From Thermoleophilia bacterium (GTDB lineage: Bacteria; Actinomycetota; Thermoleophilia; Gaiellales; F1-60-MAGs149), in the NCBI GenBank assembly GCA_037133755.1, contig JBAXNN010000001.1:148838-212837 (forward strand): 64,000 nucleotides of DNA. The letters run 5' to 3'. This document shows positions 10,873 through 42,103 of this stretch, one piece after another. The position numbers and the translations under genes are program-made. Numbering within the stretch: position 1 is the first letter of the stretch; every line of letters begins with the position of its first letter. The notes below the pieces were generated by a model that saw nothing but the letters and a program-made list of their open reading frames with translations, had not been told where the DNA came from and did no database searches.

Positions 10873-11010
10873 CCCCGCATTATCTGCGAAAAACCCGTCA
10901 GAACACAACCACCGCGCACGTGTCTAGGTACCTGCACATGCTGTAGGAAGCGGGATTTCGCGCTGCGTAATCCGCAGGGAAGCGGGAGAGAGATTCTCGG
11001 GCCGAATCGG

Positions 11011-20676: not shown

Positions 20677-21504
20677 CTACTGGTGGTACGTCAGCGGCGT
20701 GGCCAGCGCCGGCGGCATCCCAGGCTGCGTGTAGGGCTCGAGGAGCAGAGGGTCACCAAAGAATTGGTTGTATTGGCCAGCGAGGTGGCAGTCATCGGGG
20801 TTACCGTAGGACTGCGCGGCCGGCAGGGTATCCCGGTGAACCTGACCGCCAACGGTGAGGACGGGTTCGTTTGCTCCCCCCTTGACTAGGGCGCCCTCTG
20901 CGGGGGTGACCTGCCCTGCCCCTTGGTTGAGGTACGCCTGGCCGCTGCAGTCTCCTGTCGTGTACAAGATCCAAGCACTACTAAGCTCACTGGCAGTGGC
21001 GCTGGGTTGAGCCAGTCCCGATGATGCATTGATTTTCCAAACGGCGCCATCCACCAGACGGTAGAAATCCCCGCTCACGACGGGGCTCCCCGGCGTCGGC
21101 GCGGGAAGCCACATGACACCGCTGACCGTGTTCCCGTTGGCGTCGCGGACGGTGACGCCACCGCTCGAGCCACCCGAGCCACTCGCTCCGGCCGGACCCG
21201 CCGGTCCCGCGGGACCCGCCGGACCCGCGGGACCCGCCGGACCCGCGGGGCCTTGCGCCCCGTCCTTGCCGTCAAGCCCCTTCAGGGCTCCCTTGCTCAG
21301 ATCGGAGACCTCGATCGCGCCGCTCGCGATGTCACCCGAGCCGATGGCCCCGTCCTTGATATCGGACGACTGCACCGCGCCCTCCCTGATCTGCGCAGAC
21401 CCGACCGAGTTGGGCGCCAGGGCGACGGCGGCGTAGCCCGTCCCTCCCAGCGCAACGAACAATGCGAGTGTGGCGATGACGGTCGCCGCCGAAGGTTTCT
21501 TCAT
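20677..21504 (-). CDS. Secreted collagen-like repeat protein (CLP1)
   Basis: The ATG at 21504 gives MKKPSAATVIATLALFVALGGTGYAAVA (signal peptide). Next come DI..GA decapeptide-like repeats, then a G-X-Y tract GKDGAQ(GPA)7GAS, then a ~165-aa C-terminal domain. Confidence 0.8.
   Translation of the reverse strand: MKKPSAATVIATLALFVALGGTGYAAVALAPNSVGSAQIREGAVQSSDIKDGAIGSGDIASGAIEVSDLSKGALKGLDGKDGAQGPAGPAGPAGPAGPAGPAGPAGASGSGGSSGGVTVRDANGNTVSGVMWLPAPTPGSPVVSGDFYRLVDGAVWKINASSGLAQPSATASELSSAWILYTTGDCSGQAYLNQGAGQVTPAEGALVKGGANEPVLTVGGQVHRDTLPAAQSYGNPDDCHLAGQYNQFFGDPLLLEPYTQPGMPPALATPLTYHQ
21175..21273 (-). repeat. Collagen-like G-X-Y tract encoded by 9-bp GGNCCCGCS tandem repeats
   Basis: ggacccgccggtcccgcgggacccgccggacccgcgggacccgccggacccgcgggg on the top strand encodes (GPA)n. 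Confidence 0.85.
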
Positions 21505-21544: not shown

Positions 21545-21597
21545 CTGTATGGGTACCCCTATCGCCCGCGGCGCATCTGTATAGGTACCCCTATCGC
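21545..21597. promoter_or_regulatory. Cassette-1 direct repeats (candidate response-regulator operator)
   Basis: ctgtatgggtacccctatcgc (21545-21565) and ctgtataggtacccctatcgc (21577-21597) are 20/21 identical with a 32-bp period. They lie in the CLP1/RR1 divergent region. Confidence 0.6.
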
Positions 21598-27000: not shown

Positions 27001-28623
27001 GTAGATGGCATTGCCACCAAACGAGTACAGCCAGTTGGCATCGCCGGTCATGGCATGCCCCCACAGCACGCCGCTGCCGTCGGCGAAGTGCCGGATGTTG
27101 TGCTGGCCATCCACGTCGACTCGACCGATCCAGGTGTTCACCGAGCAGTTGTAATACAGGTACTCATCTGTGACGTACAAACTGCCAAGGCCGTAGTAGT
27201 TGCCGTCGTTACCCCGAACCGTGGAGCAGAGGGTGTCAACGAGCTCCGTTGCCGAGCCGGTTCCGTCGATGCTCTTCTGACAGATCTTGTCTGCATCCTG
27301 ACGCCCATAGAACATGGTGCTGTTCCATCCGAACGCGTCTTCTCTCGAACATGTGGTGCTGATGCTGTCGTCGCGACCGCCGGGAATCGCCACGCCCGTG
27401 GTGTCATTGATCCATGTAGAGCCCACCGCAGTGTTACCCGCCCAGTAGAGCGTCGTCGAGGGCAGCGGCGTCAGCGCAGCGATCGTCTGCGCCGACGAGT
27501 GCGCCGACGTCAGCACGCCGCCCGTCGCGCCCGCGCGCACCAGCACGCGAAGCTGTTTGCCGACATCGCCGCGCTTGGGCGCGTAGCTGCTCGTTGTCGC
27601 GTCAGCTCCTGCTCCGTTGGACCACGTGGATCCGCTGTCTGCCGACACCTGCCACTGGTAGTACACATCGTCAGGCGTGGCCGACCACGTTCCCGCATCG
27701 GCAGTGACGATCTCGCCCACCTGCACCGTGCCTGTTATCGCAGGCGCCGCGGAGAGGGTGAGCGCCGGACCGAGGGGCACCTTCGGCGTGCCCCCGATGA
27801 TCGAGATCTGATGGTTCTGGCCCGTTGCCGTGATGCCGGTGATCAGCGTCGGCTGCACATTCGTGCCGTTGAGGTTCGCCTTGCCGACCGTGCCTGGGAA
27901 GCGCGACGTCCAGAAGATGCTGCTGCCGTCGACCTCGACTCCCCAGACCTGGGCGGTCGACTGCGTGTCGAGCCAGGTGTGGTCGATACCGGTGCCGTCG
28001 AGGTTGGCGCGGTGGATGAAGCGGGAGTCAAACCCCGACCAGTAGATGTGCTGGCCGTCGACCGCGATCCCGCGCATGTCGAACCCGGCGTTGACGTTGT
28101 ACGTCGGGTCGATAGGTCCGCCGCTCTCAGGATTGACCCGGCGAATGCCCGCATAGCTATACCCGATGTACAGCCAATTCGCATCCGTGGTGAGGCTGTA
28201 GGGATAGTTGCCGTCCACGCCCCACGCGAAGTGCGGGTTGTTGTGGGTGCCGTCGAGGTTCGCTCGGCCGATCCACTTGCTGCGGACGCACGTGTAGAAG
28301 ATGTGCGAAGCAGATGCGGTGAAGCCCGCGATGCCGCACTGCGTATTCGCAACTGTTCGGTTCACGTTGCCGCCCGTCAGGTCCTGGGTGCAGATGTAGT
28401 TGCCACTCGTGCCGTACAGCGTGGTGGCGTCGGCGAAGAACGCGTACTCCGCCAGGCAGTTGGTGCTGACCGAGAAGTTGACGTTCGTGCCGTCCGTCGA
28501 CGCGGTGCCGATGCTCGAGTCGGCGCCCCAGTACAGGGACCCTGCTCGCGCCTGAGCCGAGAAAGTGCCGAACAGCGCGACAAGGAAAATGGCGATGACG
28601 GTCGCCGCCGAAGGCTTCTTCAT
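24025..28623 (-). CDS. Giant secreted protein: three YWTD/LDL-receptor-class-B-like beta-propeller regions alternating with Ig-like domains, plus a conserved C-terminal domain
   Basis: The ATG at 28623 gives MKKPSAATVIAIFLVALFGTFSAQARA, for 1532 aa. Recurrent blade motifs include LYWG/IYWS/IFWT/LYWA and IGRANLDGT/IGRAKLDGT/IGSAKLDGT. There are repeated ~90-aa modules of the type G.WS..P....Y.WQ.S.D.G..W......Y......D.G..LRV.V.A. Confidence 0.85.
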   Translation of the reverse strand: MKKPSAATVIAIFLVALFGTFSAQARAGSLYWGADSSIGTASTDGTNVNFSVSTNCLAEYAFFADATTLYGTSGNYICTQDLTGGNVNRTVANTQCGIAGFTASASHIFYTCVRSKWIGRANLDGTHNNPHFAWGVDGNYPYSLTTDANWLYIGYSYAGIRRVNPESGGPIDPTYNVNAGFDMRGIAVDGQHIYWSGFDSRFIHRANLDGTGIDHTWLDTQSTAQVWGVEVDGSSIFWTSRFPGTVGKANLNGTNVQPTLITGITATGQNHQISIIGGTPKVPLGPALTLSAAPAITGTVQVGEIVTADAGTWSATPDDVYYQWQVSADSGSTWSNGAGADATTSSYAPKRGDVGKQLRVLVRAGATGGVLTSAHSSAQTIAALTPLPSTTLYWAGNTAVGSTWINDTTGVAIPGGRDDSISTTCSREDAFGWNSTMFYGRQDADKICQKSIDGTGSATELVDTLCSTVRGNDGNYYGLGSLYVTDEYLYYNCSVNTWIGRVDVDGQHNIRHFADGSGVLWGHAMTGDANWLYSFGGNAIYRTAIDGGSSQVLVNNTGDVRGITTDGTYLYWVSTSYSNRIGRAKLDGTDQNNTWLDTQNSRTVWGITATGSRLYWAARDWSGGQIGSAKLDGTDVNPTLVTGIADMTYLTNRSRVHVSGGTPLPPLGAALTNSAQPTISGTPAVGQTLTAGDGTWSATPSQVFYVWQVSSDSGATWSAAPGTNGQATYAPGISDIGKTVRLKVRAGAAGGLLTTAYSAATVVVAAPPAPVNDTAPTVRLNGLFRIATPGAWTESTGNITYTYQWQLSPSGALGTWVSATGPGNATAGYVTQTGDVGQYVRVTVTAFNGNTATASSASTLVAALSTLSHLYVKSASLMADGASLQPYANPGGWGFSSNGTTNVWGCSGDIYVAPANGSTAPASIYSAGAQNFFGVLIDDQYIYFTDNGVNGHTYIHRMKIDGSEHDPTFIDTNTYTAMHFFARDAHYIYYHRGPGSGSAIGRAPITGGTGQTFVDSLPAGVAGIAVDGDHVYWTYYNNAAIGRADVTGSDVQPSFIANPAGSNAGNGNGGIGVDQNGIYYVIQDGANSGVGIASLDGTSSARLATVNSLDYSLAAIPGTPVGALPILFGSAPELTGDVGIGNTVSATSGQWTNTPERYTYRWLVSNRGADTWTAATGASGTTAEYVVPESYGGKDLKVRVIAHNGATWSDAAYSSVVTVPAPPMNAGGADAPQNSGTATVGETLTASQGTWSNAPDTDAGYAYEWQVSSNGQDGWTAALGEGGDTAEYVVDLTDDNKYLRVKVTATNAAASAEAFSAATAQVAIPAPTSSAVPVVSGTIGIGSTLTASTGTWDFATDYAYAWQSSADGSTWETASGSGAATSSYTVAAADAGRYLRVRVTGSNRIDALAILSESSIRVPSPASPVVTPPATTPSVETPPVFSPAPGITVGETRGEAILDAATPAAGADLLRGANIWVRPTSKVEYMADALPAGLTLVNGKLVASKPGTYKVKMKVKRKNGTSIVRTIKIKVG

Positions 28624-28663: not shown

Positions 28664-28715
28664 GTGTCGTACTTACCGCCCCACTACCAACCGCAAGTGT
28701 CGTACTTCCCGCCCC
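28664..28715. promoter_or_regulatory. Cassette-2-type direct repeats upstream of the giant gene
   Basis: gtgtcgtacttaccgcccc (28664-28682) and gtgtcgtacttcccgcccc (28697-28715), period 33 bp. They are part of a 125-nt block (28591-28715) that matches 30767-30891 with 8 mismatches. Confidence 0.6.
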
Positions 28716-28792: not shown

Positions 28793-30799
28793 TCAGCCGG
28801 TGACGCCCGGCAGAGCCGGCGGGGGCGACACCACGACGGTGCGTGTCGTCGTGCGCGCAGTGCCACCGGTCGGCGTGAAGGTCGTCGTGACGACCACGGC
28901 ACGGCGCGTGGCGACGGCCTCGAGGTGGCAGATCAGCGTCACGGTCGTCGCGCGGGTCACCGTCTCGGTCGCAGTGCAGGCCGCACGCCGCGCCGATGAC
29001 ACCCGGCGATACACGCCACGCTGCGTGACACGACCAGCCGAAGGGAGGCGGATGCTGGTGATGATCGACGTACCGACGGTCCGCGACGACAGAGCACGAA
29101 ACCGATTCGACGGCGGCGTCGGAGCGGCAGCGGTCGCCGTCGGCGTGGATGCGGTGGTCGCCGCCGCCGCGCCGGGAGTCGTCGGAGCCGCGCTATCGAC
29201 GGTGAACGTCGCCGTCGCACTGGTCGCACCGGTGATCGTCACGCTGCACGTCGTCGAGGTACCCGTACAGGCTCCGCTCCAGCCCGCGAACGTCGAACCG
29301 CTGGCCGGCGTGGCCGTGAGCGTCACCGTGCTCGACAGCGTGAACGAGGCACTGCAGGTTGCCCCGCAGCTGATCCCGGCCAGTGACGAGACCACCGAGC
29401 CACTGCCGCTACCGGCAGTGGAAACGATGAGCAAGGCGCTCGTCGGGGCAGCGCGGGTGACGGCCTGGATCAACCCCGAGCCCACTTCGCCCCAGACAAC
29501 GGTCGTGGCTCCGTCAGGCGCGACGGCGATCTGAGGGTACCGGGCGTCCAGTCCCGCAGCGGAGAGGTCCGCAGGGGGATCAGCCACAGGATCGGGCCAG
29601 CTACCGCCTGCAGGGCGCGTTGCGGCCTGGACGGTGTGCGCCGAGTAGACATCTTCGTGCGCCCACACGACCGTTGTTGACCCGTCAAACGCGATCGCGA
29701 TCTGGGGGTTTTGGGCATCCTCAAGCGTCACGTAGAGCTCGGACGATGTGCCCCAGGTGTTCGACCCGGCAGGGCGGGTAGCAGCCTGGATGGAGTTGAC
29801 CGCGAAGCCGTCAGTGTTGTGCCACACGACCGTTGCGGACCCATCGGACGCGATCGCGAGCTTGGGGTATCGGGCATCCTCACCCATCGCAGAGAGGACG
29901 GCCGGTATGCCCCAGGTGTTCGACCCGGCGGGGCGGGTGGCAGCCTGAATGGAGTTAACCGAGAGGCCGTCTTGGCGCTGCCACACGACCGTGGCGGTTC
30001 CGTCGGATGCGATCGCGATCTGGGGGTTCTGCGCATCCTCACCCGTCGCGGAGAGGACGGCCGGTGCGCCCCAGGTGTTCGATCCGGCAGGGCGGGTGGC
30101 AGCCTGGATGGAGTACCCCGAGGGGCCCTCGGAGTGCTGCCACACGACCGTTGCGGACCCATCGGACGCGATTGCGATCTCGGAGTAGAAGGAGATCTCG
30201 CCCACCACGGAGAGGTTCACGGGAGTGTCAACCGCAGGGTCGGGCCAGCTGCCCCCTGCGGGGCGCGTTGCGGCCTGGATGACGTAGCCGCCGGAGCCGT
30301 CGTCGGCGTACCACACGGCAGTTGCGGCGCCGTCGGCCGCAATAGCGATCTGGGGTAGATAGGCAAACGTACTCACCATGGAGATTTCCACGGGAGGACC
30401 CCAGGTGTTCGAGCCGGCGGGGCGGGTAGCAGCACAGATGCGGTCGTCGCTTGCCCAGATGGCCGTGGCCGATCCGTCGGCCGCAATAGCGATCTGGGGG
30501 TATGTGTTGTTCTGCCCCGTCACCGAGAGGACGTCCAACGTGCCCCACGTATTCGATCCGGCAGGGCGCGTGGCGGCCTGGATGATGTAGTTCGTGCCGT
30601 CGAAGTGGGACCAGACTGCCGTGGCGGCTCCATCGGGCGCGACGGCGATCTGCTGACTGCTATTCCCAGTCGTCGCGGCAACGTCAACGGGCGCACCCCA
30701 CGTGACTGCCTCGGCCGACGACGACGACGCGAGGACGACGGCCATCGACACGGCGAATGCGAGTGCGGCGATGACGGTCGCCGCCGAAGGCTTCTTCAT
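28793..30799 (-). CDS. Secreted repeat protein (7-8 units of ~48-53 aa, beta-propeller-like), Ig-like GWSGAC-type domain, PAT linker, Cys-containing C-terminal domain ending in VTG
   Basis: The ATG at 30799 gives MKKPSAATVIAALAFAVSMAVVLASSSSAEA. The unit is IQAATRPAGSNTWG.P..LS..G..A..PQIAIA.DG.ATVVW. The three central units are 159-bp DNA repeats (ccccaggtgt at 29751, 29910 and 30069). Confidence 0.8.
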   Translation of the reverse strand: MKKPSAATVIAALAFAVSMAVVLASSSSAEAVTWGAPVDVAATTGNSSQQIAVAPDGAATAVWSHFDGTNYIIQAATRPAGSNTWGTLDVLSVTGQNNTYPQIAIAADGSATAIWASDDRICAATRPAGSNTWGPPVEISMVSTFAYLPQIAIAADGAATAVWYADDGSGGYVIQAATRPAGGSWPDPAVDTPVNLSVVGEISFYSEIAIASDGSATVVWQHSEGPSGYSIQAATRPAGSNTWGAPAVLSATGEDAQNPQIAIASDGTATVVWQRQDGLSVNSIQAATRPAGSNTWGIPAVLSAMGEDARYPKLAIASDGSATVVWHNTDGFAVNSIQAATRPAGSNTWGTSSELYVTLEDAQNPQIAIAFDGSTTVVWAHEDVYSAHTVQAATRPAGGSWPDPVADPPADLSAAGLDARYPQIAVAPDGATTVVWGEVGSGLIQAVTRAAPTSALLIVSTAGSGSGSVVSSLAGISCGATCSASFTLSSTVTLTATPASGSTFAGWSGACTGTSTTCSVTITGATSATATFTVDSAAPTTPGAAAATTASTPTATAAAPTPPSNRFRALSSRTVGTSIITSIRLPSAGRVTQRGVYRRVSSARRAACTATETVTRATTVTLICHLEAVATRRAVVVTTTFTPTGGTARTTTRTVVVSPPPALPGVTG

Positions 30800-30839: not shown

Positions 30840-30891
30840 GTGTCGTACTTCCCGCCCCACCAGCAGCCGCAAGTGTCGTACTTACCGCCCC
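30840..30891. promoter_or_regulatory. Cassette-2 direct repeats (candidate RR2 operator)
   Basis: gtgtcgtacttcccgcccc (30840-30858) and gtgtcgtacttaccgcccc (30873-30891) are 18/19 identical with a 33-bp period. Confidence 0.6.
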
Positions 30892-30913
30892 CCGTCGTGC
30901 TCTGGGTTGGTCG

Positions 30914-31576: not shown

Positions 31577-33260
31577 CGCGCGCGAGCTGCTGGGTGGCCG
31601 CTGGGCGATCTCGGTCCGCGGCTGGCTGATCCTCTCTGTCGTCACCGTGATCAGCGCGATCGGGATCCGAGCGCAGTTGGGCGTCTCGACGCCGGCCGCG
31701 GCAGCGTTCACGCTCGCGTTCTGGCTGCTGGCGACAGCCATGTTCGTGGCTGCGCACCTGACCATCTTCCGTAACCGCCGCACCAAGCCCGTCCACATCG
31801 CGTGGCTGATCGCGTTCGCCATCAGCATTGGGATCGTGCGCGTGGCCGTGGCGTTTGCCGTCCCCGAGATCCGTGCCGCGCTGGGCGATGGCTGGCCGGG
31901 CGCATTCACAGCCGTCGTCTCCTTCGTCCCGGGCACAGTGCTGCTCGTCGTGCTGGTCGCGTACCTCCTCGCCGTGACCGACTGGTACGCCTCCGAGCGC
32001 ATACGGCTTCTGCACTTCGAGATCGACGCCGAAGCCGCGCGCCTGCGTGCCATCGGCGCGCTCAATGCCGCGCGCTCGGTGATCACCACCCGCATTCAAA
32101 CAGCGCTCGAGGGCCAGCTGAGCGAACTCGAACGCGCCGCCAAGGTCGATGACGCCGACGTGCGCCTCTCCGACGTGCTCCTCGACACCGCCGTCGGGTA
32201 CGTGCGCCCCGAGAGCCACCGGCTCTGGCAGGAGCGCGATCCCGCCCTGCGCCGCGGCACCCTTGCCGACGTCGAACGAGCGAGCCTCTCCGCCCCCCTG
32301 CCGATCGCGCTGCCCTTCGCGCTGTGGGCGGTCGTCATCGTCCCCGTGGCCATGGTGCGCTTCGGCGCCGGACACGGAATGTTGAGCGCACTCGCCGTGC
32401 TGACCGCCATGGCCGTGCTCTATCCGCTCGGTCGCGCTGCCGTCCGCCGCTACACGCCCGCACCACGCTATATCCGCGCGCGCCTGCTCACGCTCGTGTT
32501 CATGGCGGGCGCCGCCCTCGCCGGACCAGGCACGACGCTGCTGGGTGGGGCGAACACCACGCTGCAGCTGCAGCAGATCATGGCCGCCTTGATGATCGTC
32601 GTCGCGACGATCGCCGTCAGCTGGGCCCAGGCCGCACTCCGCGCGCAGGATGCGCGTCTGCGCTCCCTGCGCTCCCATGCCGAGGAGGCCGACTTCGAGC
32701 GCCTCGCGCTCGAGGCCGCGACCGAGCAGATGCAGCGCGAGCTCGCGCTCTATCTCCACGGCACGGTGCAGGCCGGCCTCGTGGCGTCGGCGTACTCGAT
32801 CCAGGACGCCGCCAATCGCGGCGACTCCGAGGCGCTCGAGACGGCGATCGCCGACGCCCGCTCCGCCATCGCGCAGCTGGGCAATGACGACGAGCGCGCG
32901 GCGATGGTCGACTTCGCCGAGCTGTCGCAGCGGTTTGACGCGAAGTGGCGCGGCATGATCGCGATCACCTGGGAGCTGCCAGGCGAGGCGACGACCGACG
33001 TGGCGCTGCAGCGCGTCAGCGACGTGGTGCAGGAGTGCCTCGCCAACGCCACGATCCACGGTGCCGCGACGGAGGCGACCGTGCGCGTCGTCGTCGAGGA
33101 CGACAGCGCGATCGTCGAGGTCACCGACGACGGCACCGGTGTCGGTGACGGCAAGCCCGGCCTCGGCAGCGCCGTCCTCAACGAGGCGACGGGCGGCCGA
33201 TGGACGATCGCGTCGATGCCGACCGGTGGCGCGCAGGTGCGCGCCGTCGTGCCGGTCTAG
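31551..33260 (+). CDS. Membrane sensor histidine kinase paralog (HK2)
   Basis: The GTG at 31551 (VPKTSSRPSARELLGGRWAIS) aligns with the starts of the other three kinases and overlaps RR2 by 26 nt. The longer track ORF from 31353 runs through RR2 in another frame. Architecture and H/N/G boxes match HK1. Confidence 0.8.
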   Translation: MPKTSSRPSARELLGGRWAISVRGWLILSVVTVISAIGIRAQLGVSTPAAAAFTLAFWLLATAMFVAAHLTIFRNRRTKPVHIAWLIAFAISIGIVRVAVAFAVPEIRAALGDGWPGAFTAVVSFVPGTVLLVVLVAYLLAVTDWYASERIRLLHFEIDAEAARLRAIGALNAARSVITTRIQTALEGQLSELERAAKVDDADVRLSDVLLDTAVGYVRPESHRLWQERDPALRRGTLADVERASLSAPLPIALPFALWAVVIVPVAMVRFGAGHGMLSALAVLTAMAVLYPLGRAAVRRYTPAPRYIRARLLTLVFMAGAALAGPGTTLLGGANTTLQLQQIMAALMIVVATIAVSWAQAALRAQDARLRSLRSHAEEADFERLALEAATEQMQRELALYLHGTVQAGLVASAYSIQDAANRGDSEALETAIADARSAIAQLGNDDERAAMVDFAELSQRFDAKWRGMIAITWELPGEATTDVALQRVSDVVQECLANATIHGAATEATVRVVVEDDSAIVEVTDDGTGVGDGKPGLGSAVLNEATGGRWTIASMPTGGAQVRAVVPV

Positions 33261-35425
33261 CCGACCTTGATCTTGATCGTCCGCAGCTTGGTCGTACCGT
33301 TGGCGCGCTTGACCTTCACCTGCACCTTGTAGGTACCGGGTACCGTCGCGACGAGCTTGCCATTGACGACCTTGAGGCCCGCCGGCAACGCATCGGGCAC
33401 GTACTCGACCTTGGACGTCGAGCGGACCCAGATGTTCGCACCGCGGAGGAGATCCGCGCCTGCAGCCGGCACGGCTGCGGCTAGATTCGCCTCACCACGC
33501 GTCTCGCCGACGGTGATGCCCGGCGCCGGCGAGAACACCTGGGGTGTCTCCGGCGAAGGCTCTGCCACCGGCGTGACGACTGGTGCGACCGGCGCAGCCG
33601 GTGTCGGCACGCGAATCGACGAAGCGCTCGTGGATTCCTGCGAGTCGACGCGATTCGTACCCGTTACGCGCACACGCAGGTACCGGCCCGCGTCCGCTGC
33701 GGCGACGATGTAGGTGTTCGTCGCGGCACCCGTGCCGGGAGCCGTCTGCCACGTTGAGCCGTCCACAGACGATTCCCATGCGTAGGCGTAACCCGTGGCG
33801 AAATCCCACGTGCCCGTCGAGGCCGTCAGCGTGGAGCCGATCGTGACCGTGCCCGTGATCGCCGGCACCTCCGTCGGCGACGGCGGGAGGATGTCGACAA
33901 GCGTCTGCGTGTACGCCGTCGCGACGTTTGAGCCGCCGTCGTTCGTTGCCGTCACCTGCGCCCGCAGGTACTTGTTGTCGTCGGTCATGTCCACGTCGTA
34001 CGTCGCCGAATCCGCGCCGTCACCGAGCGCGGGCTCCCACGTATCCGGAGCCCCGGAGGCCGACACCTGCCACGCATACGCGTACGCCGTTGGCTGCTGC
34101 TGCGATGCCCATGAACCTGTATCGACCGACAGCGTTTCGCCGACCTGGACCGTGCCCGTCAGCTGTGGCGTGACGCTGCTGACCGGCGCCACCGGCAGCA
34201 CCGCATTGGTCGCCATCGAGTACCCGACCGTGGCGCCGCCGTCGTTGGTCGCCGTCACCTTGACGCGCAGGAACTGGGCGTACTCGGCGGCAGCCGGGTA
34301 GTAGCTCGCCGTCGCGGTGCCCGTGCCCGCACCTGTCACCCAGCCGGACTCGCCGTTCGGCGATACCTGCCAGAGGTAGGTATACCCGCTGGCGTCGGCC
34401 GGCGGATTCATCCACGTCCCGGTCCCTGCCGAGAGCACCACATCAACCTTGGGCGTGCCGGTGATCGCCGGCGCCACCGTGTTGATCGGCGACGGTAGCG
34501 GCAGCAGCTTGGCCGTACCGCCAACGACCTTCAGCTGCGCGTGCTCGTTGCTCGAGGAGATACCAGCGCCGGTGATCAGACTCGAGTTCGCGTTGGCACC
34601 GCTGAGATCGGCGCGGCCGATCGCACCGCCGCCACTACGCCGCGCCCAGTAGATCGAGCTGCCGGTCACCGTCACACCGAACGTGTCCGAGCCGGAGCTG
34701 AGCCACGAAGCATTCGAGCCGGTGCCATTGAGTTTCGCCCGCCCGATGGTCGTACCGTTGTTGATGGCCCAGTAGACGTGCCGGCCATCGACGTCGATGC
34801 TGCGCACATCGCCGACACACAGGCTGAAGTTCGGATCGACGCCACTCCCGTCGATGTGGTAACGCTGCATGCAGCTGTACACGCCCGTGTTCCCCACGTA
34901 CAGCCAGTCATCACCCGCCGCGATCGCAGTCGTGTAACTGTCGTTCGGACCTGCGGGCGTCGCCGTGAAGTTCAAGATCGGATTCGTGCCCGCGACATCC
35001 ACCCTGCCGAGCCGGCTCGTGTTCATGCACGCCCAGTAGACGTATAGATCCGTCGCGTAGATGCCGCCGACCCCCAGGCCCCCACACCCGGTGGCGACGA
35101 GCGTCGACGAGCTGCCCGTGCCATCGAGCCGCATCTGGCAGATGTCGCTGTTGGAACGGCTGTAGTACATGGTGCTGTTCGCAGACCAGCTCCAGTCGCC
35201 GTTGCAGCCGGTGCTGACCGCATTGTTCGGGCTGCCCGATAGCACGCCCGTGGCGTCATCGATCTCCTGCGTGCCGACCGACGAGTTGCCCGCCCAGTAG
35301 ATGGAGGCCGCCGATGCCTGTGCGACTGAGCATGTGAGCAGTCCGCACAGAGCGAGGACGCCCACGAGGACAGGGCGGTGAAGCCGTGGGCGGAGAACGG
35401 CAGAGAACGACAAGAAACGCGGCAT
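33257..35425 (-). CDS. Secreted YWTD-propeller/Ig-like mosaic protein (paralog of the giant protein) with the same C-terminal domain
   Basis: 722 aa with signal-like MPRFLSFSAVLRPRLHRPVLVGVLALCGLLTCSVAQASA. Contains IYWAGNSS, VYWAC, IGRAKLNGT and IGRADLSG blades and four Ig-like modules. The last ~95 aa align with the giant protein C-terminus (PQVFSPAPGITVGETRGEA...IKIKVG). Confidence 0.85.
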   Translation of the reverse strand: MPRFLSFSAVLRPRLHRPVLVGVLALCGLLTCSVAQASAASIYWAGNSSVGTQEIDDATGVLSGSPNNAVSTGCNGDWSWSANSTMYYSRSNSDICQMRLDGTGSSSTLVATGCGGLGVGGIYATDLYVYWACMNTSRLGRVDVAGTNPILNFTATPAGPNDSYTTAIAAGDDWLYVGNTGVYSCMQRYHIDGSGVDPNFSLCVGDVRSIDVDGRHVYWAINNGTTIGRAKLNGTGSNASWLSSGSDTFGVTVTGSSIYWARRSGGGAIGRADLSGANANSSLITGAGISSSNEHAQLKVVGGTAKLLPLPSPINTVAPAITGTPKVDVVLSAGTGTWMNPPADASGYTYLWQVSPNGESGWVTGAGTGTATASYYPAAAEYAQFLRVKVTATNDGGATVGYSMATNAVLPVAPVSSVTPQLTGTVQVGETLSVDTGSWASQQQPTAYAYAWQVSASGAPDTWEPALGDGADSATYDVDMTDDNKYLRAQVTATNDGGSNVATAYTQTLVDILPPSPTEVPAITGTVTIGSTLTASTGTWDFATGYAYAWESSVDGSTWQTAPGTGAATNTYIVAAADAGRYLRVRVTGTNRVDSQESTSASSIRVPTPAAPVAPVVTPVAEPSPETPQVFSPAPGITVGETRGEANLAAAVPAAGADLLRGANIWVRSTSKVEYVPDALPAGLKVVNGKLVATVPGTYKVQVKVKRANGTTKLRTIKIKVG

Positions 35426-35465
35426 TCGTCCACGCTAAGCCACGTCCCGCATCTGCTGACCGACC

Positions 35466-35515
35466 TGTCGTACTGCCCGTATCGCGCCTCGAGCGTGTGT
35501 CGTACTGCCCGTATC
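35466..35515. promoter_or_regulatory. Cassette-3 direct repeats (candidate RR3 operator)
   Basis: tgtcgtactgcccgtatc at 35466-35483 and 35498-35515, 18/18 identical, 32-bp period. Confidence 0.6.
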
Positions 35516-35526
35516 TGTCACTGACC

Positions 35527-35532
35527 TAGACT
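35527..35532 (+). promoter_or_regulatory. Candidate -10 box TAGACT for RR3
   Basis: The hexamer end is 10 nt before the ATG at 35542. Confidence 0.5.
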
Positions 35533-35541
35533 GGCTCCACG

Positions 35542-36189
35542 ATGCTGCGCGTGCTTCTACTCGAGGACGAAGCCCTGCTGCTGATGATGCTCGCGTCCAC
35601 GCTGCCCGACGAGACGATGACCGTCGTCGGCGCATTCGAGGACGCCAAGAGCGCGGTTGCCGCGGCGGCCGAGACGCCGTTCGACGTGCTCGTCACCGAC
35701 CTCAACCTGACCGCCGGTCTCGGCCCGAACGGCATCGTCGTCGCCAACGTCATCCGGCGCGCGCATCCGGAGGCCGGCATCGTGATGCTCACGTCCTATG
35801 CCGATCCGCGGCTCGTCGGCGCGAAGCTCGAGCAGGTGCCCGACCGAACGGAGTACGTCCGCAAACACGACGTGCGCGACATCGAGGTGCTGCGTGCCGT
35901 GATTCGCCGGGCCGCCTACGGCTCCCTCGATCGCCTGGCCGACCTGCCGGCGATCGAACTCACCGACACGCAGGTCGAGACGATGCGACTTGTCGCCCAG
36001 GGCCTCAGCAATGCCGAGATTGCACGGCTGCGCGTCGTGTCCGAGCGCGCCGTCGAGCAGACGGTCAACCGGATCGCCCGCAGCCTTGGCTGCGGCAACG
36101 ACTCGAGCGTCAACTCGCGGGCGCAGATCGTCCGCGCGTACTACGAGCTGACTGGCAGCGGCGGTGCCCACAACTCTCTCTCGTCCTAG
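35542..36189 (+). CDS. Response regulator, receiver plus LuxR/NarL-type HTH (RR3)
   Basis: MLRVLLLEDEALL..DVLVTDLNL..LTDTQVETMRLVAQGLSNAEIARLRVVSERAVEQTVNRIARSLG. Confidence 0.9.
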   Translation: MLRVLLLEDEALLLMMLASTLPDETMTVVGAFEDAKSAVAAAAETPFDVLVTDLNLTAGLGPNGIVVANVIRRAHPEAGIVMLTSYADPRLVGAKLEQVPDRTEYVRKHDVRDIEVLRAVIRRAAYGSLDRLADLPAIELTDTQVETMRLVAQGLSNAEIARLRVVSERAVEQTVNRIARSLGCGNDSSVNSRAQIVRAYYELTGSGGAHNSLSS

Positions 36190-37873
36190 CACCCGCGAAC
36201 TGCTTGGCGGGCGCTGGGCGATCTCGCTGCGCGGCTGGGTGATCAGTTCGGTTCTCTTGCTGATCGCGCCGCTGCTCTCGTTCCGTGCTCTGCCGCACAC
36301 AACACCCGGGGCGCAACTGGAAATCGGGGTCGCGCAATGGGCGCTGATCTCGGTGCTCATGCTCGTCTTTCACCTCACCGTGTTCCGCCGCAGACGGCTT
36401 GCGCCGGTGGCGATCGGTGTGGTGATCGCCTTCGCCTCGGTGCTGGGCCTCGCACGTGTGGTCGCGGTCTACGTCGTTCAGCGTGCCCAGCCCAGTCCGC
36501 CACTGGCGGCGATTGACCTGGTCCACGTCGCCATCGCGATGGTGCCCGCCACGATCGTGATCTTCCTGATGATCATCTACCTGCTCGCCATCGAGGACTG
36601 GTACGCGACAGAGCGCGAGCGCCTACTGCGCTTCGAGGTCGACGCCGAGGCCGCCCGCCTGCGTGCGCTCGGCGCGCTCGACGCCACGCGCGCCGTCGTC
36701 ACCGCGCGCATCCGCGAGGATCTCGAGAGCCAGCTCGCGGGCCTCGACTCGTCCGGCGATGCACGGCTGCAGTTGTCCGACACCGTGCTCGACGCCGCTG
36801 CCACATACGTCCGCCCCGAGAGCCATGCGCTGTGGACGCAGCGGGAGACACCGTCGCGCCGCAGCAGCTTCCGCGAACTCGAGCGCGCCAGCCTCTCCGA
36901 CCCGCTGCCGCTGCTCATGCCCTTCGTGCTGTGGGCCGTGAGCGCCGGTCCGTTCGCAGTCATCCGCACCGATATCACCCGCACCTCGCTCGCGGTCGTC
37001 GCCGTACTCGTCGGCATGCTGATCGCGTACCCGCTTGGCCGTCGAGCGATCCGCCGCTACGCACCCGCGCCGCACTTCGGCCGCGCCCGTGCTCTCGCCG
37101 TCGCCGCGATGCTGATCGCCGGTCTGCCGACCATTGCGCTCAATCGCTTCAATCCGCGCTTCGAGACGATCAACGGCCTGCTTCTGGCGGTCGTGAGCGT
37201 CACGATGATCGTCCTGTTCACGATCATCGTCAGCTGGGCGCTGGCGGGCCAGCGCGTGCAGAGCGAGCGCCTGCGCGCCCTACGGTCACAGGCGGAGGAG
37301 GCGGAGTTTCAGCGCCTCGCCCTCGAAGCAGCCACCGAGCAGATGCAGCGCGACCTCGCGCTCTACCTCCACGGCACCGTGCAGGCCGGCCTGGTCGCCT
37401 CGGCCTACGCCATGCAAGACGCGGCTTCCCGCGGCGATGAGGTTGCGCTCGAGCACGCGATCGCCGACGCTCGTGCTGCCACTGCTCGGGTGAGCGACGA
37501 GCCTCCCACGCTCGCCGGCCCCGACCTCGCCTCGGTGCGCGCCGAGATCGACGAGACCTGGCAGGGCATGCTCACAATCCGCTGGATCCTGCCCGACGTG
37601 GAGCTCGCCGTGCCCGTCGTCGATCGGCTCGGCAACGTCGTGCGCGAGTGCCTCTCCAACGCATCGATCCACGGCGCCGCAACCGAGGCGACCGTGCGGA
37701 TCGTCGTCGAAGACGATTGCGTGATCGTAGAGGTCACCGATAACGGCAGCGGCCTCGGCGACGGCAAGCCCGGCCTCGGCAGCGCCGTGCTCAACGAGGC
37801 GACGCGCAGCCAATGGTCGATCGCGACGGTACCGACCGGTGGTGCGCAGGTGCGCGCCGTCGTGCCGGTCTGA
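36164..37873 (+). CDS. Membrane sensor histidine kinase paralog (HK3)
   Basis: The GTG at 36164 overlaps RR3 by 26 nt. It has the same TM/insert/TM layout, the H-box LALYLHGTVQAGL, and the C-terminal HATPase (ECLSNASIHG, DNGSG, GLGSAVL). Confidence 0.8.
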   Translation: MPTTLSRPSTRELLGGRWAISLRGWVISSVLLLIAPLLSFRALPHTTPGAQLEIGVAQWALISVLMLVFHLTVFRRRRLAPVAIGVVIAFASVLGLARVVAVYVVQRAQPSPPLAAIDLVHVAIAMVPATIVIFLMIIYLLAIEDWYATERERLLRFEVDAEAARLRALGALDATRAVVTARIREDLESQLAGLDSSGDARLQLSDTVLDAAATYVRPESHALWTQRETPSRRSSFRELERASLSDPLPLLMPFVLWAVSAGPFAVIRTDITRTSLAVVAVLVGMLIAYPLGRRAIRRYAPAPHFGRARALAVAAMLIAGLPTIALNRFNPRFETINGLLLAVVSVTMIVLFTIIVSWALAGQRVQSERLRALRSQAEEAEFQRLALEAATEQMQRDLALYLHGTVQAGLVASAYAMQDAASRGDEVALEHAIADARAATARVSDEPPTLAGPDLASVRAEIDETWQGMLTIRWILPDVELAVPVVDRLGNVVRECLSNASIHGAATEATVRIVVEDDCVIVEVTDNGSGLGDGKPGLGSAVLNEATRSQWSIATVPTGGAQVRAVVPV

Positions 37874-37900
37874 CTACGGCGATTGCCGGGCCAGGACGCG

Positions 37901-37940
37901 CAGGTGCCGGAGAGGTCCCGCAGGACCTCTCCGGCACCTG
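37901..37940. terminator. Strong bidirectional hairpin between HK3 and CLP2
   Basis: Perfect 18-bp stem (caggtgccggagaggtcc at 37901-37918, ggacctctccggcacctg at 37923-37940) with a 4-nt loop. Confidence 0.7.
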
Positions 37941-37943
37941 CAA

Positions 37944-38828
37944 TTACGACCGGTCGTACGTGAACGGACCGTGGAGCGGGCTGGGGGTACTCACCGGCGT
38001 GAGCTGCAGCACATCCATGTCCGCATTGGCCCTATTTGCCCACATCCACCTGCCGCTAGCGCTGTTCGTGCAGACGACCGGATCGCTCAGATGGGATGGG
38101 TCTGAGTCGTATCCGGACACCGGGTGGCCAGCGACGTGATGGACCGTCGTGCCGCTCACTCTGTAACTCTGACGATCATTGTAGTCAGCCCGAAGACCGT
38201 CGCCGACACGCTCGGCGGGGAATTCCCCGGAGGCGGTCTTTTGGACGTACGCGGGACCGGAGCAGTCATCAGAGAGAAAGAAAATGACCTCCCGAACAAT
38301 TCTGAACCCCTGCGAGCCATCCGAAACGACAAGCAACGTGTCGCCATTCACGGTGCGGTAGAAGGAGCTGACCGCGCCGGTCCAAGGATTGGCATCGGGT
38401 GCCGGTAGGGGCAACACACCGCTGACCACATTGCCATCCGCATCGCGGATCGTTACGCCACCGCCACCACCGGAGCTGCTGCCGGCCGGACCGGCAGGGC
38501 CCTGAGCGCCGGTCGCACCCTTGGGGCCGGCGGGACCCGCCGGACCCTGCGCGCCGTCCTTGCCGTCGAGCCCGTTCATCGCGCCCTTGCTGAGGTCGGA
38601 GACCTGGATGGAACCGGCCTTGATGTCGTCGCCGCCGATCGCGCCGTTGGCGATGTCGTCCGAGCTGACGGCACCATCCTTGATGTCGGACGACTGCACC
38701 GCACCGTCCTTGATCTGCGCGGAGCCGACCGAGTTGGGCGCCAGGGCGACGGCGGCGTAGCCCGTCCCTCCCAGCGCAACGAATAGTGCGAGTGTGGCGA
38801 TAACGGTCGCCGCCGAAGGCTTCTTCAT
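37944..38828 (-). CDS. Secreted collagen-like repeat protein (CLP2)
   Basis: 294 aa. The first 53 aa are almost identical to CLP1 (2 substitutions). The G-X-Y tract is GKDGAQGPAGPAGPKGATGAQGPAGPAG (DNA about 38475-38567). The C-terminal domain is divergent. Confidence 0.8.
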   Translation of the reverse strand: MKKPSAATVIATLALFVALGGTGYAAVALAPNSVGSAQIKDGAVQSSDIKDGAVSSDDIANGAIGGDDIKAGSIQVSDLSKGAMNGLDGKDGAQGPAGPAGPKGATGAQGPAGPAGSSSGGGGGVTIRDADGNVVSGVLPLPAPDANPWTGAVSSFYRTVNGDTLLVVSDGSQGFRIVREVIFFLSDDCSGPAYVQKTASGEFPAERVGDGLRADYNDRQSYRVSGTTVHHVAGHPVSGYDSDPSHLSDPVVCTNSASGRWMWANRANADMDVLQLTPVSTPSPLHGPFTYDRS

Positions 38829-38868
38829 GCGTCCACGCTATGCCAGCCCGCAGGGCGGTTCATCGTCG

Positions 38869-38918
38869 TGTGAGGATTCCCGTAGGTGGTTTCCCACAAC
38901 TGTCGTGTTTACCGTAGA
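38869..38918. promoter_or_regulatory. Cassette-4 repeats (one good site plus a degenerate upstream copy)
   Basis: tgtcgtgtttaccgtaga lies at 38901-38918. The copy 32 bp upstream (38869-38886) conserves only the 3' half (t.ccgtag). Confidence 0.4.
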
Positions 38919-38929
38919 CGGCGGTGAAC

Positions 38930-38935
38930 TACACT
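38930..38935 (+). promoter_or_regulatory. Candidate -10 box TACACT for RR4
   Basis: The hexamer end is 10 nt before the ATG at 38945. Confidence 0.45.
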
Positions 38936-38944
38936 CGCCACACG

Positions 38945-39592
38945 ATGCTCCGCGTGCTCCTGCTCGAGGACGAAACCCTGCTGCGCCTCACCCTCGCGTC
39001 GACGCTGCCCGACGAGACGATGACCGTCGTCGGCGCGTTCGAGGACGCCAAGAGCGCGGTCGCCGCGGCCGCCGAGACGCCGTTCGACGTGCTCGTCACC
39101 GACCTCAACCTCACCACCGGCTCGGGGCCGAATGGCATCGCCGTCGCCACGGTGGTGCGCCGTCGGTTTCCCGAGGTGGGCATCGTGCTGCTCACCTCCT
39201 ATGCCGATCCCCGTCTCGTCGGCGCGAAGCTCTCGCAGGTGCCCGACCGCACCGAGTACATGCGCAAGCAGGACGTCCGCGACATCGAGATGCTGCGCTC
39301 GGTGATCCGCCGCGCCGCCTTCGGCTCGGTCGATCGCCTGACCGACCTGCCGGCCGTCGACCTAACCGATGTGCAGATCGAGACGATGCGGCTGATCGCA
39401 CAGGGGCTCAACAACGCGGAGATCGCGCGCCAGCGCGTCGTGACGGAGCGCGCCGTCGAGCAGTCGATCAACCGGATCGTGCGCAGTCTCGGCTATGACA
39501 ACGACTCGAGCCTCAACCGGCGGGCGCTGATCATCCGCGCGTACTACGAGCTGACCGGTAGCGGCAATGCCCCTAACGCGACCTCGTCCTAG
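38945..39592 (+). CDS. Response regulator, receiver plus LuxR/NarL-type HTH (RR4)
   Basis: I prefer the ATG at 38945 (MLRVLLLEDETLL) over the track GTG at 38924, by paralog alignment. HTH is LTDVQIETMRLIAQGLNNAEIARQRVVTERAVEQSINRIVRSLG. Confidence 0.9.
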   Translation: MLRVLLLEDETLLRLTLASTLPDETMTVVGAFEDAKSAVAAAAETPFDVLVTDLNLTTGSGPNGIAVATVVRRRFPEVGIVLLTSYADPRLVGAKLSQVPDRTEYMRKQDVRDIEMLRSVIRRAAFGSVDRLTDLPAVDLTDVQIETMRLIAQGLNNAEIARQRVVTERAVEQSINRIVRSLGYDNDSSLNRRALIIRAYYELTGSGNAPNATSS

Positions 39593-41279
39593 CACCCGCG
39601 CCCTACTGGGCGGGCGCTGGGCGATGTCGATCCGCGCGTGGGTGATCGGCTCGGTGATCGTGCTCGTCGCGCCGCTCATCTGGCTGCGGGCACTGCCGGA
39701 GATGACGACCGGAGAGCTCCTGCAGATCACGATCGCCCAGTGGCTGGCGATCTCGGTGCTGGCGCTGGCGAGCAACTTCACGATCTTCCGTCGCCGCCGC
39801 GTCGAGCCGGTGGCGCTCGGGTGGGTCGTCGGGTTCGCGGTCGTGCTGGGGTTCTCCCGCGTCGTTGTCGTCTTCGCCGTGCAACGCGTCCAGCCCGGGC
39901 CGCCGCTGACGTTGCCGGAGCTGCTCAACGTGGCAATCGCGAGCGTCCCCGCCACGGTCGTCGCCTATCTGCTGACCGTCTACCTCCTCGCCATCACGGA
40001 CTGGTATGCGACCGAACGCGAGCGTCTGCTCCGGGCGGACCTCGAGGCGGAGGCCGCCCGACTGCGCGCGATCGGCGCCCTCGACGCGACCCGTACGGTC
40101 GTGACGACCCGGATCCGCGAGAACCTCGAGAATCAACTGGCCGGACTCGACGCCGCCTCCGCGAGCGAGCACCTCGAACTCTCGGACAGGGTGCTCGATG
40201 CCGCCGAGTACGTACGCCCCGAGAGCCAGGCGCTCTGGTCGGAGCAGCAGTCGCCGTCGCGGCGCGGGAGCCTGCGCGACCTCGAGCGCGCCAGTCTCGC
40301 AGCGCCGCTCCCGCTTCTCGTGCCCTACGCGCTGTGGATCGCCAGCGCTGTGCCGTTCACCGCCATCCGCGCAGGCCTGACGCACACGCTCCTCGCCGCG
40401 GCTGCCGTGCTCGCCGGCATGGTGATCGCCTACCCGGTAGGTCGTCGCGCGATTCGCCGTTTCGCACCCGCGCCGCACTTCGCCCGTGCCCGGCTGCTCA
40501 CGCTCGTGACCATGCTGATCGCCAGCCTCCCCGTGCTCGAGCTCAGCCGCCACCTCAACGGCGGTGACGCCCAGACCGTCAGCACCCAGCGCGCGTTGGT
40601 GAGCATCGGGATGATCGTCGCGTTCACGATCATCGCCAGCTGGGTGCAGGCGGGCCTGCGCGCACAAGGCGAGCGCCTGCGAGAGCTGCGCTCGCACGCC
40701 GAGGAGGCCGACTTCCAGCGGCTCGCGCTGCAGGCGGCGACCGAGCAGATGCAACGCGACCTCGCGCTCTATCTCCACAGCACGGTCCAGGCCGGTCTCG
40801 TCGCCTCGGCCTACGCGATGCAGGATGCGGCCGCACGCGGCGATGACAGCGCGCTCGAGCAGGCGATCATCGAGGCACGCATCGCCGCCGCCCGCGTCGG
40901 TGAGCACGCACCAGCGCCCGCCGAGCGCGAGCTGTCCGCGATGCGCGCGTCGATCGACGAGACGTGGCAGGGCCTGCTCGAGGTCGACTGGACGCTACCC
41001 ACGGGCGCGCTCGAAGCGCAGCAGCTGGAGCGCGTCAGCAACGTCGTCCAGGAGTGCCTCGCCAACGCGTTGATCCACGGCGCCGCATCGGAAGCGACCG
41101 TGCGCATCCGCATCGAGGACGACAGCGCGATCGTGGAGCTCACCGACAACGGCCGCGGCGTCGGCGACGGCAAGCCCGGCCTCGGCAGCGCCGTCTTCAA
41201 CGAGGCCACGGGCGGCCAGTGGACGATCGCGTCGGTGCCGACCGGTGGCGCGCAGGTGCGCGCCGTCGTGCCGGTCTAG
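39567..41279 (+). CDS. Membrane sensor histidine kinase paralog (HK4)
   Basis: The ATG at 39567 overlaps RR4 by 26 nt. Has the H-box LALYLHSTVQAGL and HATPase motifs (ECLANALIHG, DNGRG, GLGSAVF). Confidence 0.8.
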   Translation: MPLTRPRPSTRALLGGRWAMSIRAWVIGSVIVLVAPLIWLRALPEMTTGELLQITIAQWLAISVLALASNFTIFRRRRVEPVALGWVVGFAVVLGFSRVVVVFAVQRVQPGPPLTLPELLNVAIASVPATVVAYLLTVYLLAITDWYATERERLLRADLEAEAARLRAIGALDATRTVVTTRIRENLENQLAGLDAASASEHLELSDRVLDAAEYVRPESQALWSEQQSPSRRGSLRDLERASLAAPLPLLVPYALWIASAVPFTAIRAGLTHTLLAAAAVLAGMVIAYPVGRRAIRRFAPAPHFARARLLTLVTMLIASLPVLELSRHLNGGDAQTVSTQRALVSIGMIVAFTIIASWVQAGLRAQGERLRELRSHAEEADFQRLALQAATEQMQRDLALYLHSTVQAGLVASAYAMQDAAARGDDSALEQAIIEARIAAARVGEHAPAPAERELSAMRASIDETWQGLLEVDWTLPTGALEAQQLERVSNVVQECLANALIHGAASEATVRIRIEDDSAIVELTDNGRGVGDGKPGLGSAVFNEATGGQWTIASVPTGGAQVRAVVPV

Positions 41280-42103
41280 CCCAGGAAGTCGAGTTGCACG
41301 GGGCTCGGCAGCAGGCCGGCCTCCGCACCGCGCTCGAGCAAGGCGGCGACGGCCTTGCGACCCTGCTCGCCGTAATCGAGCGTGAGGTCGTTCACGTACA
41401 TCGCAACGAAGCGGTCGTTGAGCTCCGGCGCGATGCCGCGGCCGTACTCGATCGCGTAGGCCAGGGCTTCCTCGCGGTGCTCGAGGCCCACGGCCACGGC
41501 CTCCTTGAGAACGGCGGAGAGATCGAGCGCGCGGTCCTCCGGCACGTCGCGACGCATCGCGACCGCACCAAGCGGCAGGGGCATGCCGGTCTCGCCCTCC
41601 CACCACGCGCCGAGATCGAGCACGCGCTTGAAACCCTCCTGCTCCCACGTCAGCTGGCCCTCGTGGATCACCACGCCGGCTGCGACGTCGCCCGAGGCGA
41701 CGGCGTCCATGATCGCCTCGAAGTCGAGCTGCACCGGCTCGAAGGTCGGTAGCGCCAGACGGGCGGTGAGGAAGGCGGTGGTCTGCGGACCGGGGACGGC
41801 GACGCGCTTGCCAGCGAGGTCGGCCGGCACGAGGTCGGTCTTGGCGACGACGACCGGGCCGTAGCCCTCGCCGAGCGAGGCGCCGTGGCCGAGCAGGCGG
41901 TACACGTCCTGCACACCCGGGTACGCGCCGACGGACATGGCGGTCGCCTCGAGGCGACCTTCACCCGCCCACACGTTGAGCGTCTGGATATCGGCCGGCA
42001 CGAGCTCGATCTCGAAGCCGCGCAGGTCGAGCGCGCGCTCGGCAATCGCCCACACCATGAAGGCGTCATCGGGATCCGGGCTATGTCCGACGCGTACGTG
42101 CAC
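41276..42103 (-). CDS. MqnA/MqnD/SBP-fold family protein (futalosine-pathway-like)
   Basis: 275 aa starting MHVRVGHSPDPDDAFMVWAI, as in the VitK2-biosynthesis (MqnA/MqnD) family. The assignment is from memory of that N-terminal motif. Confidence 0.55.
   Translation of the reverse strand: MHVRVGHSPDPDDAFMVWAIAERALDLRGFEIELVPADIQTLNVWAGEGRLEATAMSVGAYPGVQDVYRLLGHGASLGEGYGPVVVAKTDLVPADLAGKRVAVPGPQTTAFLTARLALPTFEPVQLDFEAIMDAVASGDVAAGVVIHEGQLTWEQEGFKRVLDLGAWWEGETGMPLPLGAVAMRRDVPEDRALDLSAVLKEAVAVGLEHREEALAYAIEYGRGIAPELNDRFVAMYVNDLTLDYGEQGRKAVAALLERGAEAGLLPSPVQLDFLG

Follow-up and report, generated by a model that had tools for sequence, protein, structure and literature searches.

The window analysed here is the whole 64-kb stretch of DNA (64,000 nucleotides), which has a G+C content of 69% and contains four paralogous cassettes at 21-41 kb. 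In each cassette, a minus-strand signal-peptide gene is divergent from a plus-strand operon encoding a 215-aa response regulator (RR), of REC plus GerE composition, and a ~570-aa multi-pass histidine kinase (HK), with an overlap of 26 nt between the kinase start and the RR stop. The minus-strand proteins are collagen-like, beta-propeller/DUF5050 or Ig-like, and every cassette carries two 18-nt boxes spaced 32-33 nt apart and followed by TAGACT or TACACT. The divergent intergenic region of cassette 3 is 116 bp long and lies between the ATG of the target gene D3 (35425, minus strand) and the ATG of the response regulator gene RR3 (35542). Within it, the sequence TGTCGTACTGCCCGTATC forms an 18-nt direct repeat with copies at 35466-35483 and 35498-35515, identical at every position and 32 nt apart from start to start. 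The initial annotation had reported perfect 18-nt repeats at 32-nt spacing, located between a 722-aa gene (start 35425) and RR3 (start 35542); the repeats were found as described, and their placement is confirmed from the coordinates.

The upstream copy, box A (35466..35483, plus strand), occupies positions -41 to -58 from the D3 ATG, and is proximal to D3 and distal to the RR3 promoter. It is separated by a spacer of 14 nt (35484..35497), conserved in length and variable in sequence, from the identical box B (35498..35515, plus strand), which overlaps the expected place of a -35 element and ends 11 nt before the hexamer TAGACT (35527..35532, plus strand). This hexamer is the predicted -10 of the RR3-HK3 operon promoter and, since it lies only 9 nt before the ATG, the RR3-HK3 mRNA is inferred to have little or no leader. 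On the minus strand, a -10-like hexamer of the TANNNT form, TAGCGT (35432..35437), is found 6 nt upstream of the D3 ATG. All promoter positions given here rest on such -10-like hexamers, and a promoter scan of 35200-35800 found no -35/-10 pair of the sigma-70 type. A terminator-like hairpin with a T-run was called at 35416-35436 on the minus strand, across the D3 start codon, where it overlaps both the predicted -10 and the ATG; the call is probably fortuitous.

The TGTCGTACTGCCCGTATC pair is the longest non-coding close direct repeat within the 64-kb window. Recurrence of an 18-mer within 60 nt was seen in none of 100 first-order Markov simulations of the window, and recurrence of a 14-mer within the same distance had a mean of 0.13 per simulated window in the 100 simulations; the exact repeat is unexpected by chance. 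A third copy 32 nt to either side is absent, the matches at these positions, compared by eye, being just 3/18 and 5/18. Elsewhere in the window, a 26-nt perfect repeat with 18-nt spacing is present at 21206-21250, inside the target gene of cassette 1, where it encodes a collagen-like GPAGPA tract.

RR3 (35542..36189, plus strand) is a REC plus GerE/LuxR-HTH response regulator of 215 aa with the recognition helix ...AVEQTVNRIARS. It has the receiver domain, with phospho-acceptor Asp and acidic pocket, and the C-terminal GerE/LuxR HTH that together mark the NarL/FixJ type, and its Pfam matches are Response_reg (1e-11) and GerE (4.5e-07, above the gathering score). D53 of RR3 aligns with D59 of NarL, and residues E8, D9, D53, T84 and K108 are invariant in 14 homologues. 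The closest solved structures, by full-length alignments, are RcsB, VraR, DevR and DesR, with phmmer E-values of only 1e-5 to 1e-6. RR3 reaches none of the NCBIfam equivalog cut-offs (best MadR, 60 bits against 300; RcsB, 34.5 against 235; NarL, 32 against 250), and so falls below the cut-offs of the curated MadR, MctR, RcsB, NarP and NarL subfamilies. The other RRs of the window are 66-80% identical to it. HK3 (36164..37873, plus strand), the start of which overlaps the end of RR3 by 26 nt as in an operon, is a multi-pass membrane histidine kinase. Pfam HATPase_c is present and its catalytic domain is nearest to those of DevS, DosT, VraS and NarX; the Pfam HisKA_3 model was not matched, and the H-box LALYLHGTVQAGL (LHGTVQ) is conserved in all four HKs of the window.

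D3 (33257..35425, minus strand) encodes a secreted protein of 722 aa with a signal peptide (N-terminus MPRFLSF...AQASA) and a beta-propeller region (DUF5050/YWTD-like), the DUF5050 match being weak and below the curated cut-off. In Actinobacteria, a TANNNT motif ~10 bp before the start codon marks leaderless genes (PMC3160421). In the family, every target gene carries a TANNNT hexamer 6-7 nt ahead of the start codon, and almost all loci have a CACGCTA block at this distance from the divergent start; the D3 mRNA is probably leaderless, since its hexamer lies 6 nt upstream of the ATG. If the target start is leaderless, the target promoter would have its boxes at about -41/-58 and -73/-90, as is typical of activators. 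The coding sequence of one signal peptide (MKKPSAATVIA...) is near-identical in four minus-strand genes of the window, with starts at 21470-21504, 28590-28623, 30765-30799 and 38795-38828, and the same coding sequence is found in many homologous loci, joined to those of unrelated mature proteins (collagen-like, BNR/InlB-repeat or beta-propeller).

The boxes of the other three cassettes are likewise on the plus strand. In cassette 1, two boxes of TGTAT(G/A)GGTACCCCTATC lie at 21546-63 and 21578-95 (21546..21595), with 32-nt spacing and 11 nt to TAGACT at 21607-12. In cassette 2, two boxes of TGTCGTACTT(C/A)CCGCCCC begin at 30841 and 30874 (30841..30891), with 33-nt spacing and 22 nt to TAGACT. 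In cassette 4, TGTGAGGATTCCCGTAGG (38869-86) and TGTCGTGTTTACCGTAGA (38901-18) together span 38869..38918 in the 32-nt register, with 11 nt to TACACT at 38930-35. The 11-nt offset from the downstream repeat to TAGACT had been claimed as common to cassettes 1 and 4; the offset itself is present in both, and the hexamer of cassette 4 is TACACT and not TAGACT. The possibility of an indel in this cassette's upstream box was considered; none is needed, as TGTGAGGATTCCCGTAGG at 38869-86 is already in the 32-nt register.

A scan with the position weight matrix (PWM) of the family, with which box A of cassette 3 scores 26.7 bits, revealed an orphan pair of the cassette 2 type at 28665-82 and 28698-715 (28665..28715, plus strand). 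The two boxes are 33 nt apart and lie 42 nt upstream of the ATG at 28623 of a minus-strand gene (24025-28623) encoding a 1535-aa secreted DUF5050/YWTD/Ig protein, and neither TAGACT nor an RR gene is found downstream of the pair. RR2 would then have at least two targets, because a pair of its own type fronts this secreted-protein gene. The region at 28665-28715 is a recent duplicate of the cassette 2 intergenic region up to the second box. Weak single PWM matches at 10921, 26324, 29252, 30419 and 62012 were rejected, as their geometry gives no support. The match at 10921-10938 (plus strand; TGTCTAGGTACCTGCACA, 13.7 bits) lies 49 nt upstream of a 1035-aa ORF without a Pfam match; its geometry is non-canonical and the site is probably due to chance.

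Homologous loci were collected in three ways. A scan limited to one genome per species yielded 11 loci (L001-L011); all of these belong to uncultured actinobacterial bins, and several bear the label Gaiellales or Thermoleophilia. A metagenome scan added seven loci (L018-L024), most of its 80 loci being unrelated RRs outside the family, and look-ups of exact proteins added L098-L100 and L103-L106; the exact-protein look-up of RR3 itself gave no match. Among 22 first cassettes, 17 have the same layout: the target ATG, 41-42 nt, box A (18 nt), 14 nt, box B (18 nt), 11 nt, TA(G/C/A)ACT and usually 9 nt (7-9) to the RR start. The hexamer TA[G/C/A]ACT is present in 22/22; its distance to the RR start is mostly 9 nt, falling to 8 nt in L019 and to 7 nt in L003 and L005. 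The remaining five cassettes form the EKSIQR clade, named after its recognition helix, in which the distance from box B to the -10 is 21-22 nt, corresponding to one extra helical turn (10-11 bp). In this clade (cassette 2, at 30892-30913, and L007, L008, L009 and L023), the inserted stretch ends in GGT(T/C)GTCGTAGACT, like the 5' half of a box. Individual loci depart from the two-box pattern: at the RR promoter of L008 there is one box only, with both distances kept, L019 has lost box A and kept the spacing, and L023 has three boxes. Seven further RR-proximal promoters from six loci, found later, fit the layout.

The initial annotation had read the repeats as the control region of cassette 3, a reading supported by the recurrence of the two boxes and -10 in all four cassettes of the window and in ~25 homologous loci from uncultured Gaiellales/Thermoleophilia-type metagenome bins. 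The two-box architecture is confined to the clade with at least 63% identity, since it is absent from the distant homologues L101 (55% identity) and L102 (42%). In L101, the recognition helix of which is EVTVSR, there are no TGT..CC boxes; a 23-nt direct repeat with 39-nt spacing is present at L101:1993-2054, within a divergent intergenic region of 222 bp, and may be an analogous operator of another type.

When 76.5 kb of family loci were scanned with the PWM, matches above 15 bits were confined to RR-proximal boxes and orphan pairs, with four more orphan pairs found in L008, L009, L010 and L011. Every orphan pair matches the local RR in type, keeps the common orientation and the 32-33 nt spacing, and precedes a signal-peptide gene by 41-42 nt. 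As orphan pairs keep the 41-42 nt to the target ATG without an RR promoter, the box pair would appear to be an operator for the divergent secreted-protein gene at least as much as for the RR operon.

Conservation across the intergenic region was measured on 13 non-redundant cassettes, aligned without gaps, as mean pairwise identity both within helix classes and between them. Identity within and between classes was 0.74 and 0.62 for box A, 0.83 and 0.71 for box B, 0.93 and 0.96 for the -10 hexamer, and 0.81 and 0.80 for the GTGACC just upstream of the -10. The corresponding values were 0.41 and 0.41 for the inter-box spacer, and 0.43 and 0.36 for the segment between the divergent -10 and box A. 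Box A of cassette 3 is conserved in the orthologues L103, L105, L106, L001 and L003. In close cassette 3 orthologues (RR 97% and 92% identical), the single toggling box position is 17 (T/G), and the 18/18 identity of the two boxes in the window is on this comparison best taken as one state of a constrained site and not as a fresh duplication.

Within the boxes, T1 G2 T3 and C12 C13 are invariant in all classes, and T9 is present in 32/36. Models of the 18-mer as a simple palindrome or set of half-sites were rejected. Across the family, the dyad at position 9/10 is weak (39% against 25% expected) with an internal periodicity of 6 and 12 nt, and in the cassette 3 box only 1/9 positions are complementary about the centre. 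The inverted-repeat operator (e.g. 7-2-7) associated with the NarL/FixJ type was therefore not found in the cassette 3 box.

The helix strings quoted in the initial annotation (EVSLRRIARN, EKSIQRIAQV, EQTVNRIARS and EQSINRIVRS) are correct for the four RRs, and it had proposed that the 3' halves of the repeats be compared with these recognition helices. Columns 140-183 of the HTH show mostly little or no variation; 173 (K/M/V/Q) and 176 (R/Q/Y/N/S) are hypervariable, and 143 and 181 vary less. In a global alignment, columns 173 and 176 align with V189 and K192 of NarL, which together with K188 make the base-specific contacts of helix alpha-9 (PMC10853779). The box type follows the helix class in independent loci. 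The consensus is TGTAKRGSTASCCCTAYC for helix class EVSLRR, TGTCGTRCTNYCCGCCMC for EKSIQR, TGTCGTRNNKNCCGTAKM for EQ(S/T)(I/V)NR, TGTCGTRCTNCCCGTACC for EKSLSR / EKALSR, TGTAGWRSYASCCGTAYC for EMS(L/I)YR and ...TTCCCGAATA for EMSIRR. The 3' half does vary with the RR class, and so does the 5' half.

Once backbone divergence is allowed for, box distance is associated with helix difference (partial r = 0.24, permutation p ~0.001), a correlation still confounded by shared ancestry; in the 15-25% bin of backbone divergence, RRs with the same helix have a box distance of 0.18 and RRs with a different helix one of 0.30. A simple helix-to-box code is incompatible with L098 and with L006 and L011, in which the 5' halves are mixed. 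L098 (T173/S176) keeps the GAATA 3' half, like the M173/R176 class, so that the box is not encoded by residues 173 and 176 alone. The boxes of RR3 and RR4 differ at 6/18 positions despite the common Q173/N176. Both sets of boxes (35466-35515 and 38869-38918) have a CCGTA(T/G) 3' half, and cross-talk between cassettes 3 and 4 at the level of DNA is possible.

Taken on the sequence evidence, the TGTCGTACTGCCCGTATC repeats are probably operator boxes of the adjacent NarL/FixJ-type regulator RR3, set in a compact bidirectional promoter of 116 bp. HK3 would phosphorylate RR3 at D53, and RR3~P, probably as one dimer per box in a head-to-head or head-to-tail arrangement, or possibly as a monomer, would occupy both boxes, which are predicted to lie on the same face of the DNA because the 32-bp spacing is about three helical turns. 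From these upstream boxes, RR3~P would switch on the probably leaderless D3 promoter, and hence the secreted beta-propeller protein, given that the boxes hold activator positions. Box B would take the place of the -35, in a Pho-box-like manner, which would give RR3~P control of its own operon as well, most likely as an activator.

Several known regulators offer precedents for parts of this arrangement. NarL of E. coli belongs to the same protein family (REC plus GerE HTH), and its action at the ogt promoter depends on two sites placed at -44.5 and -77.5, a distance of 33 bp. This distance matches the 32-33 bp spacing of the boxes, and the inferred transcription start sites would give about -43/-76 in the cassette 2 clade, in agreement with the ogt positions. 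In contrast to the NarL sites of ogt and yeaR, which are 7-2-7 inverted repeats, the cassette 3 box is asymmetric and its boxes are in direct repeat; moreover, sequence similarity to NarL is low (32 bits against the cut-off of 250 for the model) and the proximal box of cassette 3 is one turn closer to the -10. The Pho box overlaps the -35 of PhoB-activated promoters, and phoBR autoregulation uses a box of this kind. The likeness lies in an activator box of ~18 bp that covers or stands in for the -35 and keeps a constant short distance to the -10, which for the Pho box is ~10 bp. However, PhoB is of the OmpR/winged-helix family and not of the GerE family, and its boxes are built of 7+4 tandem half-sites. 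Among Gram-positive bacteria, DevR/DosR (Mycobacterium) and VraR/LiaR (Firmicutes) are RRs of the NarL family, in operons with HisKA_3-type kinases, and are autoregulated through tandem boxes, the proximal one adjoining or overlapping the -35. They differ in having palindromic boxes (the 20-bp Dev box, the LiaR inverted repeat), have low sequence identity to RR3, and lack both a rigid leaderless divergent module and multiple paralogous cassettes.

The sign of autoregulation is the point on which the nearest rival differs. RR3 may bind the same boxes and repress its own promoter via box B, with the divergent gene activated or also repressed, which is considered unlikely. Box B spans about -41 to -24 with its centre at ~-33; class II sites of the classical kind (-41.5 to -44.5) lie farther from the core promoter, and from a centre near -33 repression of the RR promoter is just as conceivable. 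Nevertheless, there is no -35-like hexamer to occlude; what was found, with no recognisable -35, is a box whose distance to the -10 is short and constant (11 nt in 17/22 cassettes, 21-22 nt in 5/22). In the EKSIQR clade the centre of the box is at ~-43, one helical turn farther upstream, and a kept phase is expected for contact with RNA polymerase, not for simple occlusion. Contact with polymerase is favoured over occlusion for this reason and because NarL at ogt needs two sites 33 bp apart, and the orphan pairs lie entirely upstream of the core promoters of their targets.

Activation by RR3 itself is also preferred to binding of the boxes by a factor other than the adjacent RR, whether a global regulator, an alternative sigma or an accessory protein, which seems quite improbable. 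The invariant T1 G2 T3 and C12 C13 and the near-invariant T9 could reflect such a common factor, and the asymmetry of the box is unusual for dimers of the NarL family. The invariant positions, however, are equally readable by the invariant helix residues E172, R177 and R169, and a common factor accords poorly with the presence of four different box types in the four cassettes of one genome. Moreover, the box type changes with the linked RR when the whole cassette is replaced at a syntenic site, and orphan pairs always match the type of the local RR. Least credible, to the point of being very nearly discounted, is a repeat without an operator role, as a recent neutral 32-bp tandem duplication or an element acting at the RNA level. 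The two copies are 100% identical in the window, but the 14-nt spacer is unlike the sequences flanking the boxes, and the pairs of boxes kept in homologous loci differ at several positions and enclose spacers that are unrelated; the conservation footprint excludes neutral duplication. Both predicted start points are downstream of the boxes, which also counts against this rival, and an RNA element is excluded since Rfam gave no match in the cassette 3 intergenic region, the only sub-threshold match being inside the RR coding sequence, and predicted folds were no better than those of shuffled sequences (z +1.57 and +0.39).

Comparisons between related loci suggest how the cassettes have changed. 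L099 is syntenic with the window at 35.5-42.1 kb (35542-42103), and the flanking menaquinone-biosynthesis protein (VitK2_biosynth) is 96.4% identical. By comparison, the RRs are 71-74%, the HKs 54-59% and the collagen-like target 54% identical; the helix classes differ, and the boxes match the helix class in each case. This looks like a hypervariable island with replacement of whole cassettes. The cassette 3 orthologues L105 and L106 have the same RR and near-identical boxes, which differ only at position 17 of box B. To the left, from box A exactly, their flanking sequences are unrelated, with the start codon of the new target still 41 nt away and TACGGT 6 nt before it. The target genes of the two loci appear to have been swapped at a breakpoint adjoining the operator. 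On the grounds of the L099 and L105/L106 comparisons, the cassettes seem to behave as exchangeable modules in a hypervariable island. A more tentative proposal is that they are orthogonal modules, swapped whole in a hypervariable island of uncultured freshwater Thermoleophilia/Gaiellales-like Actinobacteria, with co-diversification of the operator and residues 173/176 and with asymmetric, non-palindromic binding by the GerE HTH.

The arrangement would be of a kind already known, NarL/FixJ-type RR operators in an autoregulated divergent promoter, and no new regulatory principle is revealed; the setting is an uncharacterised, highly variable gene family. For this two-component clade, known only from metagenomes, the analysis provides a precise map of operator and promoter, and ties these systems to a changing repertoire of secreted proteins of beta-propeller, Ig and collagen-like types. 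Between them, the four paralogues of this genome and the many allelic cassettes at other loci offer a natural series on changes of DNA specificity and on insulation in LuxR/GerE regulators. If the tentative proposal of orthogonal modules is true, they would constitute a natural specificity series for asymmetric GerE-HTH binding, and the island would give strain-level variation of regulated surface/secreted proteins.
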